Below are positions 17,046 to 60,661 of a stretch of 61,986 bases of DNA, piece by piece; position 1 is the stretch's first letter, and the number at the start of each line of letters is the position of its first letter. A model generated the notes under the pieces. It did no database searches, was not told where the DNA came from, and saw only the letters and a program-made list of their open reading frames with translations. The stretch comes from Candidatus Jorgensenbacteria bacterium GW2011_GWA1_48_11 (GTDB lineage Bacteria; Patescibacteriota; Minisyncoccia; UBA6257; GWB1-50-10), in assembly GCA_001003475.1 (NCBI GenBank), contig LCPF01000002.1, positions 2,190-64,175 of the forward strand, written 5' to 3'. The translations under genes and the position numbers were made by a program.

Positions 17046-17774
17046 CTATGGAATGCTGTCGATGTTCTTGCTGATGTTGGAAACCTTTCTTTTTTGGTGA
17101 AAATCGATGGCAAGAAGGATGATTATCCAGACGCCGATTATCACATAGAAAACGGCCCCGCCCGACGAGCCGGGACTGCCTGCGACCGCGAGCGCGTAAT
17201 CCTTGAAGAGATAGACGAGGATTCCGGCGATTGCGTCCCAGATTATCGTGGAAAAGAGAGCGGCGAAAAAGAAAGTTTTAAAAGCCATTCGCATGATTCC
17301 GGCGGCGGTGTCGGTAAGGGCGGCCGCGCTCGGGAGCCAGTAGCTAAGGAAAATAGCGAGAACACCCCGTTTCGTGACCTTTTCGCGCTCGTTCTCGATC
17401 GCTCCTTTGAGCCCGAACCGGACCAGCAACCGATACCAGCCGTATTTCCCAAGGGCATAGTTGATGAGATGTGCGATGAAGAGCCCGACAGTGGCGACAG
17501 ACACCACAATTGCCGCTTCAAACGGCGATTTTGTCAGGATGACGCTGAGGAAGATCACGAAGATGCCGGGGAAATATCCTCCCACGAGGAGCATGCCTTC
17601 GACGACAGCGCTTATGAGCAGGGCCGGGAGGCCGTAGCGCGCGAACCACTGCCTGGCGATTTCTTCAAGTTCATTTGTCGGCGGCAAATTGAAAACATCC
17701 CAAATTATCCAGAGGGACCACGAGAGCAATAAAAGCAGAAGCGGGACAGAGAGTAATTTAAGGTAATGTTTCAT
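17046..17774 (-). CDS. DedA/VTT-domain membrane protein
   Basis: VEG..YFPG, INYALGKYG, AAGIMRM motifs. Confidence 0.75.
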   Translation of the reverse strand: MKHYLKLLSVPLLLLLLSWSLWIIWDVFNLPPTNELEEIARQWFARYGLPALLISAVVEGMLLVGGYFPGIFVIFLSVILTKSPFEAAIVVSVATVGLFIAHLINYALGKYGWYRLLVRFGLKGAIENEREKVTKRGVLAIFLSYWLPSAAALTDTAAGIMRMAFKTFFFAALFSTIIWDAIAGILVYLFKDYALAVAGSPGSSGGAVFYVIIGVWIIILLAIDFHQKRKVSNISKNIDSIP

Positions 17775-17852
17775 GGGCGAAGCCGAACGATGTTGTAACT
17801 TGTTGGGAGGGAAGGAATCGAACTTTCATTCACAGCTTCAAAGGCTGGTGTC

Positions 17853-17910
17853 TCCCTAGGCATCGTTTTACGATGCCGGGACCCCGGTCATCTCAGTGAT
17901 GACTTAGGGG
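17853..17910 (-). mobile_element. 58-bp non-autonomous double-hairpin element in tRNA D-loop
   Basis: CCCC-TA-AGTCATC-ACTGA-GATGACC-GGGG-TCCC-GGCATCGT-AAA-ACGATGCC-TA-GGGA. Confidence 0.7.
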
Positions 17911-17916
17911 CTATCC

Positions 17917-18264
17917 CTAGGTATTTTTATGCTTTTTGCCATCCAAAGCTGCGGGACTTGGATTCGAACCAAGATACCCAGCTCCAAAGGCTGGTGTCCT
18001 ACCATTAGACGATCCCGCAGCTTTGGATACCAATTTCTTTTTAAGTTTACCACCCCACGGGGTGTATTTTAAAGTCCATTCTTTCTTCCTAGCTTCCGAT
18101 AAGGATTTGAATGATTCGTTGTAGACTAAAGTCAACGGTCTGCGATTTTTTGTGCTTTGCATTTTGCCTGCGTTGTGCGTTTCAACCCTCTTGTTTAAAT
18201 CATCGCAGGTGCCAACATATAACTTGCCGTCCTTATCGCTTTTTAATATATACAAATACGGCAT
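17917..18264 (-). CDS. Small GIY-YIG nuclease (115 aa) whose C-terminus is translated through the tRNA
   Basis: YLYILKS..LYVG..NKR..HN..ST..RRPLTLVY.E...ARKKE; start taken at MPYLY. Confidence 0.9.
   Translation of the reverse strand: MPYLYILKSDKDGKLYVGTCDDLNKRVETHNAGKMQSTKNRRPLTLVYNESFKSLSEARKKEWTLKYTPWGGKLKKKLVSKAAGSSNGRTPAFGAGYLGSNPSPAALDGKKHKNT
17949..18019 (-). tRNA. tRNA-Gln(UUG), intact cloverleaf, CCA not encoded
   Basis: TGCGGGA acceptor, GTCTAATGGTAGGAC D-arm, CCAGC-CTTTGGA-GCTGG anticodon arm, CTTGG-TTCGAAT-CCAAG T-arm. Confidence 0.93.
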
Positions 18265-18378
18265 AAAAATACCGGGACCCCGGTCGCTTTGCGACCTAGG
18301 GGCCGTTAGACGACCCGGCAAAACGTTTTTTAACGTCAAATCTTAATCGAATCGCACAATATAGTATATAATTAGAAC

Positions 18379-19605
18379 GTGCGCAATATCAAATCTCTTA
18401 AAACCACCCTTGACGAGCAATTGGCCAGGGCGGCTAATCAAATTTCCATTATCGAGCTCGTTGATCTGATTGTGGAATTCGCCTACGTTTCCCGGGCTTC
18501 GGACATCCATTTGGAACCGGCCGACGACAAGGTGATGGCCCGTTTGCGGATCGACGGCATTTTGCACGACGCTTTTTTCTTCGCCAAAGAACTGCAGGAC
18601 GAGGTCGTGAGCCGCATCAAAGTCCTCTCCGGCCTCAAAACCGATATTCACCATTCGCCCCAGGACGGCCGTTTCAAGGCCAAAATGGAAGGCGGCCGGG
18701 AAATCGATATCCGGGTTTCGATCGCGCCGACCTATTACGGCGAAAACGTGGTGATGAGGATTCTGGCCGAAGCGGCCCAGATTTTCACGCTGGACGACCT
18801 GGGTTTCTCGAAAGACCAGCTCGCGGCCGTCCACAAGGCCATTTTAAAGCCCTACGGCATGATCCTTGCGAACGGCCCGACCGGCTCCGGCAAGTCAACG
18901 ACGCTTTACGCCATGATCAAGAAACTCAATACCAAGGAAGTCTCGATCATTACGGTCGAAGACCCGATCGAGTATTCCATTCCGGGTATCACCCAGATGC
19001 AGGTGAATGTCCAGGCTGGCCTGACCTTTGCCTCGGGCTTGCGCTCGATCCTGCGGCAGGATCCGAACATTATCATGGTCGGCGAGATCCGCGATTCGGA
19101 AACCGCCAACATCGCCGTGAACGCCGCCCTGACCGGCCACTTGATGCTTTCCACTTTGCACACGAACGACGCCGCCACCACTTTTCCGCGCTTGATCGAT
19201 ATGGGCGTGCCGCCCTTCCTCGTCGCCTCGACCGTGAACGTCGTCATTGCCCAAAGATTGGTGCGGGTGGTGTGCCCCTCCTGCCGCAAGGCGCGGACCC
19301 TTAGCATCGCCGAGCTGAAGAGCCTGTCCTCGATCGCCAAGGAGCTTCTGGTGGACAAGGTTTACACCGTGGGGCCGGGCTGCAATGACTGCGACCATAC
19401 CGGTTACAAGAGCCGGATCGGCATCCACGAAGTTCTCGAGATCAACGACGATATCCGCTCATTGATCGTGGGCCGGGCCGACGCCAACCAGATCAAACAG
19501 CAGGCCGTCAAGAACGGGATGAAAACAATGATCGAAGACGGCGTCCTGAAGGCCCATGCGGGCGTGACGACGATCGAAGAGATCCTCCGGATCATTTATG
19601 AATGA
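18379..19605 (+). CDS. pilB: Type IV pilus assembly ATPase (PilB/GspE)
   Basis: ASDIHLEP, PQDGRF, GPTGSGKSTTLY, EDPIE, LRQDPN, GHLMLSTLHTN, CxxC pairs. Confidence 0.93.
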   Translation: MRNIKSLKTTLDEQLARAANQISIIELVDLIVEFAYVSRASDIHLEPADDKVMARLRIDGILHDAFFFAKELQDEVVSRIKVLSGLKTDIHHSPQDGRFKAKMEGGREIDIRVSIAPTYYGENVVMRILAEAAQIFTLDDLGFSKDQLAAVHKAILKPYGMILANGPTGSGKSTTLYAMIKKLNTKEVSIITVEDPIEYSIPGITQMQVNVQAGLTFASGLRSILRQDPNIIMVGEIRDSETANIAVNAALTGHLMLSTLHTNDAATTFPRLIDMGVPPFLVASTVNVVIAQRLVRVVCPSCRKARTLSIAELKSLSSIAKELLVDKVYTVGPGCNDCDHTGYKSRIGIHEVLEINDDIRSLIVGRADANQIKQQAVKNGMKTMIEDGVLKAHAGVTTIEEILRIIYE

Positions 19606-19672
19606 AGCCCCGTCGCCGGATCAAACACTGCAGCGCCCGGGCGCTTTTCTTGAAAACAAGCATTAAGTAATC

Positions 19673-20836
19673 ATGTCTTTATTCTCTTTTGGTAAGAGGG
19701 GTCAAATCCAAAACGTTCCAAAAAGCGAAGCGCTTGGCTCGGTGCGGGGCAAGAAGAATTCTTTCTGGGAATTTATGCGCCGCTTTTTGGGTTCTGTTCC
19801 GCTTCAGGAAAAGATCAATTTCGCCCGCCATCTTTCCGTTTCCATCAAAAGCGGCATGTCCTTGATTGACGCCTTGAAATTGATCCAGGGGCAGTCCAAT
19901 TCCAAAAAATTCAGCCGCTTGATCGGAATAATCATCGAAGACGTAGAGAACGGCCAGTTTTTGGCCCAAAGCCTGGCGAAATTCCAGTATGTTTTCGGCG
20001 ATCTGTTCGTGAATATGGTCAAAGTCGGGGAGACGAGCGGCAATCTTTCCCAAAGCCTGCTTTATCTGGCGGGCGAGATCAAGAAGCAGCGGGAGATCAA
20101 CCGGCGTATCAAGGGCGCCCTGATTTACCCTCTGATTATTTTGATCGCGACGATCGGCGTCACCTTGTTTCTGACGCTTTTCATTTTCCCGAAAATCCTG
20201 CCGATTTTCGTCAGCCTCAAGATCCAGCTGCCTTTTACGACCCGGCTCGTGATCCAATTTTTGAGCTTTCTCCAATTTTACGGCCTTTATCTTTTGGGCG
20301 TTTTGGTCCTGCTCTTTATTTTGGGCAAGGGCTTGCTCGCCCTCCGGCGGGTCCATTTCTTTTTTGACCAGCTGATGGTGAGCTTGCCCTTTCTTTCGCA
20401 GGTCATCGTGAACATCACCATGACGAGTTTTACCCGATCTTTGAGCGTGCTTTTGAAGAGCGGCATGACCCTGGTCGACGCCTTGGACATAGCGAGAGGC
20501 ACCTTCCACAATCTTTATTACCAGCGGGAAATAGAGCGGATGGCCGAGGGCGTGAAAAAAGGGGAATCGATGGCCCGCTATCTGGCCCAGAACCACCGGA
20601 TTTTCCCGCCGATGCTCACGGGCATGATCCAGGTCGGCGAATCGACCGGCAACCTGGAAGAAAACCTGTCTTACTTGTCCGATTACTACGAAAGCGAAGT
20701 GGACGAAACCTTGAAAAACCTGACGACGGTTTTGGAGCCGGTCTTGCTCCTCACGATGGGGCTTTTGGTCGGCTTCATCGCTCTTTCCATCATTACGCCG
20801 ATCTACCAGGTTACCCAGGGTTTGCAGATTAAGTAA
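19673..20836 (+). CDS. pilC: Type IV pilus platform protein (PilC/GspF)
   Basis: Two T2SSF repeats, VGETSGNL, ALIYP, VLEP..PIY. Confidence 0.92.
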   Translation: MSLFSFGKRGQIQNVPKSEALGSVRGKKNSFWEFMRRFLGSVPLQEKINFARHLSVSIKSGMSLIDALKLIQGQSNSKKFSRLIGIIIEDVENGQFLAQSLAKFQYVFGDLFVNMVKVGETSGNLSQSLLYLAGEIKKQREINRRIKGALIYPLIILIATIGVTLFLTLFIFPKILPIFVSLKIQLPFTTRLVIQFLSFLQFYGLYLLGVLVLLFILGKGLLALRRVHFFFDQLMVSLPFLSQVIVNITMTSFTRSLSVLLKSGMTLVDALDIARGTFHNLYYQREIERMAEGVKKGESMARYLAQNHRIFPPMLTGMIQVGESTGNLEENLSYLSDYYESEVDETLKNLTTVLEPVLLLTMGLLVGFIALSIITPIYQVTQGLQIK

Positions 20837-59557: not shown

Positions 59558-60661
59558 TCATCTTTTCAATATTTCTATCCCCGGCAATTTCTTACCGGAC
59601 AAGTAATCGAGCATTGCTCCCCCACCGGTTGAAACGAATTTGATCTTATTTTCCAAGCCCAATTTCAGAATTATGGTCGTGGTTTCGCCGCCGCCGACCA
59701 GCGTAAATCCCCTGTTTCTGGCAACGGCTTTGGCTAACTGATAAGATCCTCTTTCAAAGCCTTTTTTCTCGAACAGTCCGACTGGACCGTTCCAGATAAT
59801 GGTTTTCGACTTTTTTACGAGGCTGATGAATTCAACTGTTGTTCTCGGACCAATATCCAGAATTTTGTCTTTATTAGCTCTGAAATCGCTCGGCAAGATA
59901 ATCTTTTGATTATGCAAGTATTTTTTTATGGGAGGAATGGCGTCGGGGTCAAAAAGCGAATTTCTAATATCCAGGCCCAGAGCCTTGAAAAAAGTATTGG
60001 CCGGCCCGCCGCCTAATAAGACCCGGTCAGCTTTATTCAGAAAATATTTGATGACACCGAGTTTATCAATCGCCTTGGCGCCGCCGATGATTAAGGTCAG
60101 GGGGTGCTTGTATTTGCGCATGGCCAAATCCAGATTCTTCATTTCCGACGCCAGGCTCAACCCGGCGTAATGCGGCAAAAATCTCGGCAAAACGCTTATG
60201 GAGGCGTTTTTTCTATGGGAGGCGGCAAAGGCCTCGTTCACGTAAAAGTCGCCCAAAATAGCCAGTTTTTTGGCAAAAACAGGGCTATTTTTAGCCTCCC
60301 CCGGCCAGAACCTGAGATTTTCCAGCAAAAATATTTTATTTTTTGAAAGATCAATGTCCCTCCTAAGACCGCGGAAATTATTGCCAAACGGCAGAAATTT
60401 GATCTTTTGGCCGAGCCTTTTTTCCAGGATTTTTGCCAAAGGGCTTAGTGAATATTTGCTGTCTTTCCACTTGGGCCGGCCGCGGTGGCTTAAAATGACG
60501 ATTTTGTTCTTATTCTTTAAGAGGAGTTTTATGGCCGGCAAAATCGCCTTGAGGCGGTAAGCGCTTTCTTCCTGGCTCGGTTCGATGTTCAAATCAACGC
60601 GCAAAAGACCGATTTGGCCGCGCCATTTCTTCAAATTCTTAGCGCTCATGTATCTAAGCAT
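59558..60661 (-). CDS. pgk: Phosphoglycerate kinase
   Basis: LRVDLN, SHRGRP, LENLRF, NEAF.SHR, GGAK, WNGPVG.FE, STGGGA. Confidence 0.95.
   Translation of the reverse strand: MLRYMSAKNLKKWRGQIGLLRVDLNIEPSQEESAYRLKAILPAIKLLLKNKNKIVILSHRGRPKWKDSKYSLSPLAKILEKRLGQKIKFLPFGNNFRGLRRDIDLSKNKIFLLENLRFWPGEAKNSPVFAKKLAILGDFYVNEAFAASHRKNASISVLPRFLPHYAGLSLASEMKNLDLAMRKYKHPLTLIIGGAKAIDKLGVIKYFLNKADRVLLGGGPANTFFKALGLDIRNSLFDPDAIPPIKKYLHNQKIILPSDFRANKDKILDIGPRTTVEFISLVKKSKTIIWNGPVGLFEKKGFERGSYQLAKAVARNRGFTLVGGGETTTIILKLGLENKIKFVSTGGGAMLDYLSGKKLPGIEILKR

Follow-up and report, generated by a model that had tools for sequence, protein, structure and literature searches.

Mobile endonuclease genes that carry a replacement for the sequence they displace have been described from fungal mitochondria. 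In the available part of that account, the mobile open reading frames (mORFs) of Allomyces atp6 and of Glomus atp6, atp9, cox2 and nad3 are free-standing LAGLIDADG or GIY-YIG open reading frames (ORFs) that lie in a conserved gene and supply a foreign replacement for the part they displace. The native sequence stays on as an unexpressed remnant, and relatives with an intact gene are found (PMC3630166). The stretch of DNA analysed here, referred to throughout as the window, comprises 61,986 nucleotides of contig LCPF01000002.1 of Candidatus Jorgensenbacteria bacterium GW2011_GWA1_48_11, a member of the candidate phyla radiation (CPR). It contains a tRNA-Gln(UUG) gene that is split by a 389-nt insert, which holds a GIY-YIG ORF and a second, complete tRNA-Gln(UUG) within a double hairpin, and by a 58-nt insert of the same architecture. 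It is probable that the larger insert is a composite of about 390 bp that was inserted precisely between nt 19 and nt 20 of the tRNA-Gln and inactivated the gene. As far as the mORFs are described in the source named above, they are the closest functional precedent, given that in both cases an endonuclease ORF lies inside a conserved gene together with replacement cargo and a native remnant. Unlike the organellar mORFs, the window element is bacterial, its target is a tRNA and its cargo is a whole gene rather than one end of a gene; it is furthermore bounded by a conserved double hairpin and encodes an 81-amino-acid nuclease of the SLX1/UPF0213 type.

Two further sets of insertions resemble parts of this locus. 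The double-hairpin elements of Allomyces, according to the available part of a paper citing Paquin et al. 2000, consist of two adjacent hairpins with evidence of mobility, lack a flanking duplication, are not removed from transcripts and lie in rRNA and protein genes (PMC2800124). As described there they have no linked nuclease, whereas the window family has one, and the two sequence families, set apart here by description, are presumably unrelated. In CPR rRNA genes, GIY-YIG ORFs occur in insertions other than group I and group II introns; these insertions are found mostly at the tops or bases of stem-loops and were judged to fall outside classical homing (PMC11270868). These share with the window element the CPR hosts, the GIY-YIG ORF and the non-intron nature of the insertion, but the main text of that paper contains none of the terms 'tRNA', 'hairpin' or 'palindrom' and no cargo gene, all of which apply to the window element. 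A link between a GIY-YIG enzyme and tRNA genes is known from phage T4, where SegB, a free-standing homing endonuclease, promotes the inheritance of a tRNA gene region, as stated in the available part of the report (PMC2330249). Unlike the window nuclease, SegB is phage-borne, lies between tRNA genes rather than inside one and has no hairpin ends. It is also longer and has DNA-binding parts.

The small copies have their own parallels. Rickettsia palindromic elements (RPEs) are short palindromic selfish DNAs that lie in frame in protein genes and also occur in RNA genes such as that of the transfer-messenger RNA (tmRNA); they are longer than the small copies of the window family, and to our knowledge they have no autonomous partner. 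The window small copies resemble them as in-frame palindromic inserts and differ in their host lineage and in having one member with a nuclease and a tRNA. Insertion sequences of the IS200/IS605 group and the repetitive extragenic palindromic systems REP/REPIN-RAYT have hairpin ends, make no target duplication and use short internal sequences that pair with the ends to define the cleavage sites, and cargo-less hairpin doublets occur beside the enzyme-bearing copy. Unlike these, the window family has no HUH/Y1 transposase (PF01797), has only a purine at position -1, and its candidate enzyme is a hydrolytic GIY-YIG nuclease. The element thus combines two known kinds, a mobile endonuclease ORF with replacement cargo and an RPE-like double hairpin. 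The preliminary description of this DNA had called it apparently undescribed, and this stands: an Rfam scan of the region gave no intron, ribozyme or other family, and the literature covered, which lies outside subscription journals and supplements, gave no account from CPR of a GIY-YIG element that targets tRNA genes and has a cargo tRNA or double hairpins.

Coordinates refer to the window, and the locus is read on its minus strand (Table 1). The resident tRNA-Gln(UUG), hereafter the outer gene, is interrupted after nt 19 by the 389-nt insert and after nt 22 by the 58-nt insert. Direct reading bears out the order given in the preliminary description, a split tRNA-Gln with the 389-nt insert, TAG and the 58-nt insert, and its account of the large copy was likewise confirmed: the second loop holds a GIY-YIG ORF whose ATG lies in the left arm and whose TAG stop consists of the TA bulge of the right arm and the first G of GGGA, together with a complete tRNA-Gln(UUG), the inner tRNA, which is called by ARAGORN, matches the Rfam tRNA model at 64.2 bits and has 21 of 21 stem pairs. 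Deletion of both inserts in silico restores, as had been claimed, a tRNA-Gln(UUG) of 72 nt in ARAGORN, and a target-site duplication is absent at the tRNA, trmD and tmRNA junctions. The stretch GGGTCGTCTAACGG of the outer 5' part recurs unchanged in the uninterrupted tRNA-Gln that the relative G008 has at the orthologous locus. With the slash marking the boundary of the element, the left junction ...TAA(N)GG/CCCC and the right junction GGGA/TAGGA are found in the window, in the loci L071, L072, L080 and L081 of other genomes and in 11 metagenome loci.

Table 1. Features of the split tRNA-Gln locus, in window coordinates
Feature	Position	Strand	Basis
Outer (resident) tRNA-Gln(UUG) 5' part, nt 1-19, to D-loop G18G19, TGCCGGGTCGTCTAACGG	18303..18320	-	Direct reading
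Large cargo-bearing double-hairpin element, 389 nt	17914..18302	-	Descriptor search
Helix P1 (CCCC/GGGG) around TAG bulge, and hairpin 1 (GTCGC-AAA-GCGAC)	18278..18302	-	Reading and descriptor search
TCCC (P2 5' strand) and stem 2 left arm GGTATTTTTATGC, holding ATG 18264-18262	18261..18277	-	Inverted repeat
GIY-YIG ORF, 115 codons; nuclease domain residues 1-81 = 18022-18264	17917..18264	-	Pfam PF01541
Inner intact tRNA-Gln(UUG)	17948..18019	-	ARAGORN, Rfam
Extended helix ATCCAAAGC...GCTTTGGAT: inner tRNA acceptor stem plus 9 bp	17941..18028	-	Direct reading
Stem 2 right arm GCATAAAAATACC, TA bulge and GGGA (P2 3' strand)	17914..17932	-	Reading; TAG 17919-17917 = ORF stop
TAG = outer tRNA nt 20-22, separating both inserts	17911..17913	-	Direct reading
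Small cargo-less double-hairpin element, 58 nt	17853..17910	-	Fold, descriptor search, covariance model match 55 bits
Outer tRNA-Gln 3' part, nt 23-72, decayed	17802..17852	-	Weak Rfam tRNA match, 19.6 bits
Sigma-70-like promoter candidate TTGATA-18-TATACT, upstream of outer tRNA gene	18363..18392	-	10/12 consensus matches; weak

Comparison of the two inserts identified a common core, CCCC-TA(R)-hairpin-(C)GGGG-TCCC-(G)hairpin-(Y)TA-GGGA, in which the stems differ in sequence yet still pair. The 58-nt copy folds exactly according to this architecture (-31.1 kcal/mol, z = -6.3, with 0 of 200 shuffles as good), and stem 2 of the large copy is a perfect 13-bp inverted repeat, GGTATTTTTATGC/GCATAAAAATACC, with its right arm at 17920-17932. 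Among 19 small copies, which had been selected by a pattern that fixes the core, 98.4% of cells are paired and 35 cells show double-sided changes, a level reached in 0 of 500 shuffles, and slid registers lower the pairing to 57-62%; helix P2 also covaries in copies found by the covariance model (TGCC/GGCA, TGGC/GCCA). This covariation upholds the earlier view that the copies share one architecture in which structure rather than sequence is conserved. The consensus is a pair of bulged hairpins whose 4-bp basal helices use the two halves of a central octamer, GGGGYCCC. The 8-nt centre of the window element, GGGGTCCC, pairs with both termini, and given that the octamer halves form one strand of each basal helix, on a single strand the two termini would abut on a continuous 8-nt splint. 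No fixed target tetra- or pentanucleotide was found at the flanks, the only common feature being the purine directly before the element in 27 of 27 copies.

The ORF of the large copy scores 48.3 bits with the Pfam GIY-YIG family PF01541 (cut-off 22.6; E = 1.3e-12). Comparison with 14 relatives indicates that Y3, Y16, G18, R26, N31 and E62 are invariant and that Y5 and H30 are nearly so; these Tyr, Gly, Arg, His/Asn and Glu residues are taken to have the catalytic roles assigned by the GIY-YIG motif. The closest solved structures are those of UPF0213 (1zg2, 4.6e-11; 1ywl, 4.3e-10), followed by SLX1 chains (1.7e-5 to 8e-3), and by this measure the nuclease groups with the UPF0213/SLX1-like branch, not with I-TevI or UvrC. 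SLX1 is a structure-specific endonuclease. The part of the ORF beyond residue 81 is encoded by the inner tRNA gene together with the right arm, and in 8 of 11 copies the frame stays open across the tRNA as far as the terminal TAG. In every fully read large copy (window, L071, L072, L080 and L081) the ATG lies within stem 2, and the arm that holds it covaries. The preliminary description had noted no integrase, transposase or group I/II intron core, and Pfam and Rfam scans found none: the element has no other ORF with a family match, no integrase and no tyrosine or serine recombinase is present at the locus or in its neighbours, and the Y1 transposase PF01797 was not found in the own genome (96% complete), controls having matched in 6 of 14 genomes.

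Four other CPR genomes (L071, L072, L080 and L081) contain this composite at an identical D-loop position of tRNA-Gln and in the same orientation. In each, the outer 5' part ending ...TAA(N)GG is followed by hairpin 1, GGGGTCCCGG, the ATG-bearing arm and a close GIY-YIG homologue, and after the nuclease by a complete tRNA-Gln set in an extra covarying helix, the stem arm, YTAGGGA and the outer TAGGAC...; covarying flanks equivalent to the extended helix of the window are found at these four loci and also at L007 and L011. The order large copy, TAG, small copy is repeated in L072 and L093. A protein-based scan of metagenome contigs gave 22 loci, 12 of which have a nuclease at least 68% identical; the same left junction is seen in 11 of these 12 (L084 has a one-base variant and L089 is truncated), and the right junction, inner tRNA-Gln then TAGGGA/TAG, in all 11 that reach far enough, although the near-identical L087, L088, L090 and L091 are not independent. 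The architecture is the same in 13 loci other than the window, and the large element measures 386-397 nt. By covariance model the family is present in 5 of 151 genomes of the host's order, the own genome included. A private repeat, as suggested by a pattern search in which 0 of the 40 nearest relatives had a copy, was considered and was overturned by these wider scans. Given the patchy distribution and a nuclease identity of 68-77% across CPR classes, the sequences point to horizontal exchange of the unit between CPR classes.

An empty-site allele, which the preliminary description had proposed to look for in close relatives, is found in G008, the closest relative (PilB 78% identical), where an uninterrupted tRNA-Gln(UUG) lies upstream of pilB at the orthologous locus and has a D-arm sequence identical to that of the window's outer gene. 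At this locus in G002 (PilB 76%), the outer 5' part carries a short hairpin of another kind at that very point of the D-loop, and a truncated GIY-YIG remnant and a complete tRNA-Gln follow, so that the tRNA-Gln gene appears to have been invaded more than once. In one of the metagenome loci a second double-hairpin copy is nested in the left end of the large element, between hairpin 1 and stem 2 (L093:1100-1200).

Cargo-less copies are found well beyond the tRNA. A descriptor search and the covariance model identified five family members in the own genome (691 kb, 8 contigs, 49% G+C): the two in the tRNA and one each in the tmRNA gene, trmD and cca. The tmRNA copy (51 nt) is antisense and, with respect to the Rfam model, shows as 55 inserted nucleotides in a hairpin loop, an Rfam scan of the loci L001 and L002 giving tmRNA only. 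The trmD copy (48 nt) is translated in frame as PKPKAGAPAAKSGLGA, a 16-amino-acid insert that is absent from 9 of 9 aligned TrmD orthologues, and the copy in cca, the gene of the CCA-adding enzyme, is also 48 nt long and is degenerate. A strict pattern of the small form, run against 185,579 species genomes, gave 16 copies at 15 loci, nearly all in CPR, with hosts among the Saccharibacteria, Wolfe-, Staskawicz-, Moran-, Buchanan-, Nomura- and Paceibacteria; the covariance model placed copies in four more genomes of the host's order and gave seven further copies. The scan for further copies of the architecture that had been proposed was therefore positive in the own genome, at the 15 pattern loci and in the four additional genomes of the order. 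Cargo-less copies measure 42-58 nt; the own genome has four of them, other species genomes have 16, and the model adds seven. Those in protein genes lie in trmD, dnaG, dnaE, cca, ligA and the genes of an SBP_bac_5 protein, a CHASE2 cyclase and a TrwB-like ATPase, are 42-54 nt long, and have a length that is a multiple of three and an open frame in 8 of 8 cases, whereas only 1 of 11 tRNA-embedded copies has such a length. At L071, L072, L080 and L081 further small copies often lie in the outer anticodon loop (after nt 36) and in the T loop (between nt 53 and 54). The small copy of the window is likely to be a cargo-less member of the large copy's family, RPE-like where such copies lie in protein genes; large and small copies may form the autonomous/non-autonomous pair that the preliminary description proposed, but the lack of a close nuclease in all seven genomes with small copies alone speaks against a strict pairing of this kind.

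Three contigs that match the small-form pattern come from bins labelled Armatimonadota or Pirellulales. Well-formed copies at L073:22-73 and L075:1036-1087 lie in Armatimonadota-binned contigs of 63% G+C, and their left flanks are identical, so both copies are part of a larger repeat; L079 has one copy in a Pirellulales-binned contig of 43% G+C, adjoining a tRNA-Gln. These copies reflect either spread beyond CPR or a binning error. Other palindromic inserts were also encountered. The TrmD of G005, from another genus (L039:1501-2241), has its own 30-amino-acid insert, made of two 15-amino-acid VALRQAQDNREPRRT-like repeats and located five residues from the insert site of the window genome; by its appearance, a palindromic element of another kind has entered this loop of the protein. 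A double hairpin distinct from the window family, TCCGCCCGAGGCGGA + CAGCCTTGGGCTG, is present in the own genome (G000:C1:362050-362110) and also inside an outer tRNA-Tyr fragment of another genus (L024:1440-1470), and is probably another mobile hairpin family.

The inner and outer tRNA-Gln differ in their state of preservation. The inner tRNA is the only UUG tRNA-Gln found in the genome. The preliminary description had stressed that deletion of the inserts restores the D-loop of the outer gene, and it does; however, the gene is no longer a good tRNA, given that its two parts together retain 14 of 21 stem pairs and the acceptor stem is mismatched. In the ten loci that could be numbered validly, all 21 stem pairs of the inner tRNA are present, whereas the outer genes of the same set have 14-21 of 21 and at least one broken pair in nine (7 of 8 when the near-identical L087, L088 and L090 count once). 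The intact inner tRNAs and the broken outer genes mean that the cargo is under selection while the host gene is not; judged from these sequences, the outer genes are decaying pseudogenes rather than spliced genes, and the cargo tRNA has taken over from the broken gene.

It could nevertheless be that the inserts are non-canonical tRNA introns, structured RNA that is removed from the pre-tRNA so that the outer tRNA-Gln is functional. The virtual excision that restores an ARAGORN tRNA-Gln in 12 of 14 loci, the location of inserts in the D, anticodon and T loops, all sense-oriented within tRNA-Gln, and the strong RNA fold are what such introns would show. However, this is very unlikely for three reasons: first, the outer genes have the broken stem pairs described above and the inner tRNAs none, and a working outer gene would leave no need for a complete spare tRNA. 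Second, the in-frame state of all eight copies in protein genes is expected only if the inserts stay in the mRNA, and the tmRNA copy is antisense. Third, a permissive Rfam scan of 17600-18500 for a group I/II ribozyme core gave only the tRNA and chance-level matches, and neither the tRNA splicing endonuclease EndA (tRNA_int_endo, PF01974) nor RtcB (PF01139) was found in the 96%-complete own genome. Introns of the archaeal bulge-helix-bulge type go with EndA and RtcB and with exons kept by selection, and differ from this locus on both counts. Of the two readings left side by side in the preliminary description, the mobile element is largely supported by the recurrence, the empty site and the decay, and the tRNA intron is not supported; the feature is probably a selfish element at the level of DNA.

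A mobile element need not be a single one, and the possibility was considered that two unrelated elements are nested here: hairpins of the kind of RPEs or miniature inverted-repeat transposable elements (MITEs), moved by some host or foreign factor, and a mobile ORF of GIY-YIG and tRNA that landed in or beside a hairpin loop. The composite would then spread only by recombination through the tRNA-Gln flanks, and the nuclease would never act on the hairpins. In line with this, a nuclease more than 50% identical to the window's was found in 0 of 7 genomes that hold small copies alone, the repeats that bracket the other GIY-YIG ORFs of the genomes compared are quite different, and the composite is always at one site while the small copies are scattered. 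In addition, in two genomes (L068:1-345 and L082:190-572) a complete small double hairpin lies directly upstream of a GIY-YIG ORF of this first family and a tRNA-Gln, beside the nuclease gene and not around it, the ORF of L068 beginning right after the outer gene's TAGGAC. This explanation is unlikely all the same, if less so than the intron: the core is invariant around nucleases that are 68-77% identical, at no fewer than 12 distinct loci in several CPR classes, which argues for selection on the ends as part of the unit, and the ATG lies inside stem 2 not only in all fully read large copies but also at the left junctions of the metagenome loci examined. Furthermore, a second tRNA-Gln-targeting family (G027 = L007, G037 = L011 and L098-L100), inserted in the D-loop after TCTAA and with the different ends CTTGCCCCGCC...GGCGGGGTGAAG, follows the same logic, and in L007 its target gene also holds, in the outer anticodon loop, a mini copy of 25 nt that lacks cargo. 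The outer 3' half shows no difference from the inner tRNA in G027 and G037.

Taking the composite as one mobile unit, it is suggested that the nuclease would mobilise it by one of two routes: the tRNA-Gln gene may be broken and the repair may copy the unit in through short tRNA homology, or the folded single strand may be cut in a structure-specific manner. For the composite, nuclease-stimulated copying via the short, universally conserved tRNA flanks is favoured; for the small copies, a structure-specific cut at the splinted termini is a possible route. Neither of the simple models fits well, given that the composite is always at one site, which makes pure transposition awkward, and that the cargo tRNA has the target's D-loop, which makes simple sequence-specific homing awkward, as the nuclease would cut its own cargo. 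The native tRNA promoter may drive the nuclease and the cargo tRNA, as one weak promoter match (Table 1) and the constant orientation suggest, although the promoter scan gave a site count not above shuffles despite the one good-looking site upstream of the outer gene. Nuclease levels could be kept low by pairing of the arm that holds the ATG and by RNase P cleavage of the stop-less ORF. A bolder proposal would see here the first bacterial family of DNA transposons driven by a structure-specific, SLX1-like GIY-YIG nuclease, in which the element folds as a single strand, its 8-nt centre acts as a guide that aligns the termini, these are cut and re-ligated without duplication, the spare tRNA serves as payment for landing in an essential tRNA gene and the RPE-like inserts in dnaG, dnaE, ligA, trmD, cca and tmRNA are the non-autonomous offspring; this has a fair chance of being right, though it is less likely than not.

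Several observations weigh against a nuclease-driven unit. The inner tRNA keeps an intact GTCTAATGGTAGGAC D-arm and its D-loop sequence equals that of the target, so that the recognition site is not removed from the carrier; homing genes lose it there, although like them the composite occupies the same site across hosts and has an empty allele. The protein is a bare catalytic domain of 81 amino acids in which no DNA-binding domain was found. Outside tRNAs, targeting of hairpin loops is not significant, with 3 of 14 copies in such a setting against 7% of controls (P = 0.08), and the lack of a close nuclease in the seven genomes with small copies alone means that these may not depend on the nuclease or may be fossils. 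That the cargo tRNA travels with the element was also considered, and the identities are too weak to decide it: the window's inner tRNA is identical at 62-64 of 72 positions to other UUG cargo tRNAs, at 55-62 to CUG ones and at 57 to the native tRNA of G008. The anticodon type, CUG or UUG, agrees between inner and outer tRNA in 10 of 11 loci and switches among closely related nucleases, which makes gene conversion with the host copy equally possible. Finally, the public contigs compared contain neither an occupied/empty polymorphism nor an excision product, and no contig spans 17977-17995 inside the inner tRNA. A joint that skips 326 letters, tried as an excision product, has 21 letters on its shorter side and 25 other letters between, and was read as stemming from intact tRNA-Gln genes of other organisms.

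Given that the Logan contigs end in the inner tRNA and none bridges 17977-17995, the locus might be thought an assembly artefact, two contigs misjoined via shared tRNA-Gln sequence. Many organisms share words at this place, and an artefact is extremely improbable: every outer junction is spanned by exact contigs from public groundwater runs, which stem from several studies (X1 records 1 and 5; X6 record 21; X7 record 32), the identical order of parts was assembled independently in four genomes and 11 metagenome contigs, and the arms of the 13-bp stem, one in either half, are complementary, as the P2 strands of the two halves match. Misassembly, raised in the preliminary description as a way in which its reading could fail, is accordingly not borne out.

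The 58-nt copy is short, ORF-less, folded and multi-copy with conserved ends, in the manner of RPE-like or MITE-like elements, but has none of the target-site duplication that defines classical MITEs, and integrase-type elements that target tRNA genes have a recombinase and a partial tRNA repeat at one end, neither of which is present here. The combination is new in bacteria: an essential single-copy tRNA gene is hit and the damage is neutralised by a whole-gene cargo, a replacement strategy documented until now mainly for gene ends in fungal mitochondria. It ties a defined DNA structure to the bare 81-amino-acid SLX1-like GIY-YIG protein, a type that is among the most frequent of the uncharacterised small proteins in CPR genomes. 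It also offers a possible origin for short peptide inserts that lack annotation in core CPR proteins, and a possible reason why gene finders overlook some tRNA genes or count them twice. If the nuclease does move the hairpins, this would be a very small system for studying structure-guided DNA insertion, and if the transposon proposal is true, the long-missing kind of 'autonomous partner' for in-frame palindromic elements would be supplied.

The window element is one well-defined member of a broad and apparently unnamed CPR phenomenon. Small GIY-YIG ORFs are multi-copy in 38 of 40 relatives, and they co-occur with tRNA genes, with a tRNA directly downstream on the same strand at 13 of the 28 GIY-YIG loci examined; an upstream 5' fragment of the same tRNA (Gln, Tyr, Lys, Glu, Pro or Val) is present at 10 or more of those 13. 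Perfect inverted repeats of 13-20 bp, which start (A/T)CCC and have a copy-specific sequence, bracket many of these ORFs. Two stand-alone GIY-YIG ORFs of the own genome outside the window, at G000:C1:41821-42099 and 59703-59998, each lie in a perfect 15-bp inverted repeat (ATCCCGTTAGAGGCA and ACCCCGCACCTTTTC) with flanks that suggest a duplication of 2-4 nt (TGAA, TTGA), and a near-identical repeat end, CCCGTTAGAGG, brackets GIY-YIG ORFs of other genera (L015, L020). A further GIY-YIG ORF, at G000:C1:253929-254258, lies directly upstream of a tRNA-Glu(UUC) and after a tRNA-Ser, with no clear outer tRNA fragment seen. At L013:1301-1500 (G009) an outer tRNA-Gln fragment has three tandem copies of one 38-nt hairpin in its D-loop, and a GIY-YIG ORF and an intact tRNA-Gln lie downstream.

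The tRNA complement of the own genome has other peculiarities. No tRNA-Asn, no tRNA-Thr(GGU) and a single CAU tRNA were found in the 96%-complete assembly; interrupted versions of the missing tRNAs were considered, and only two weak partial tRNA matches were obtained, with no further copies of the element filling the gaps. A cluster of four tRNAs at G000:C6:8906-9229 gives odd ARAGORN calls, with anticodon positions 36-37 and one tRNA-???. Around the split gene itself, a gene for a VTT/DedA-like membrane protein lies at window 17046-17774 on the minus strand, and on the other side a PilB-like ATPase gene followed by a PilC-like gene occupies 18379-20836 on the plus strand, with pilB divergent from the tRNA, likewise in the relatives G008 and G002.

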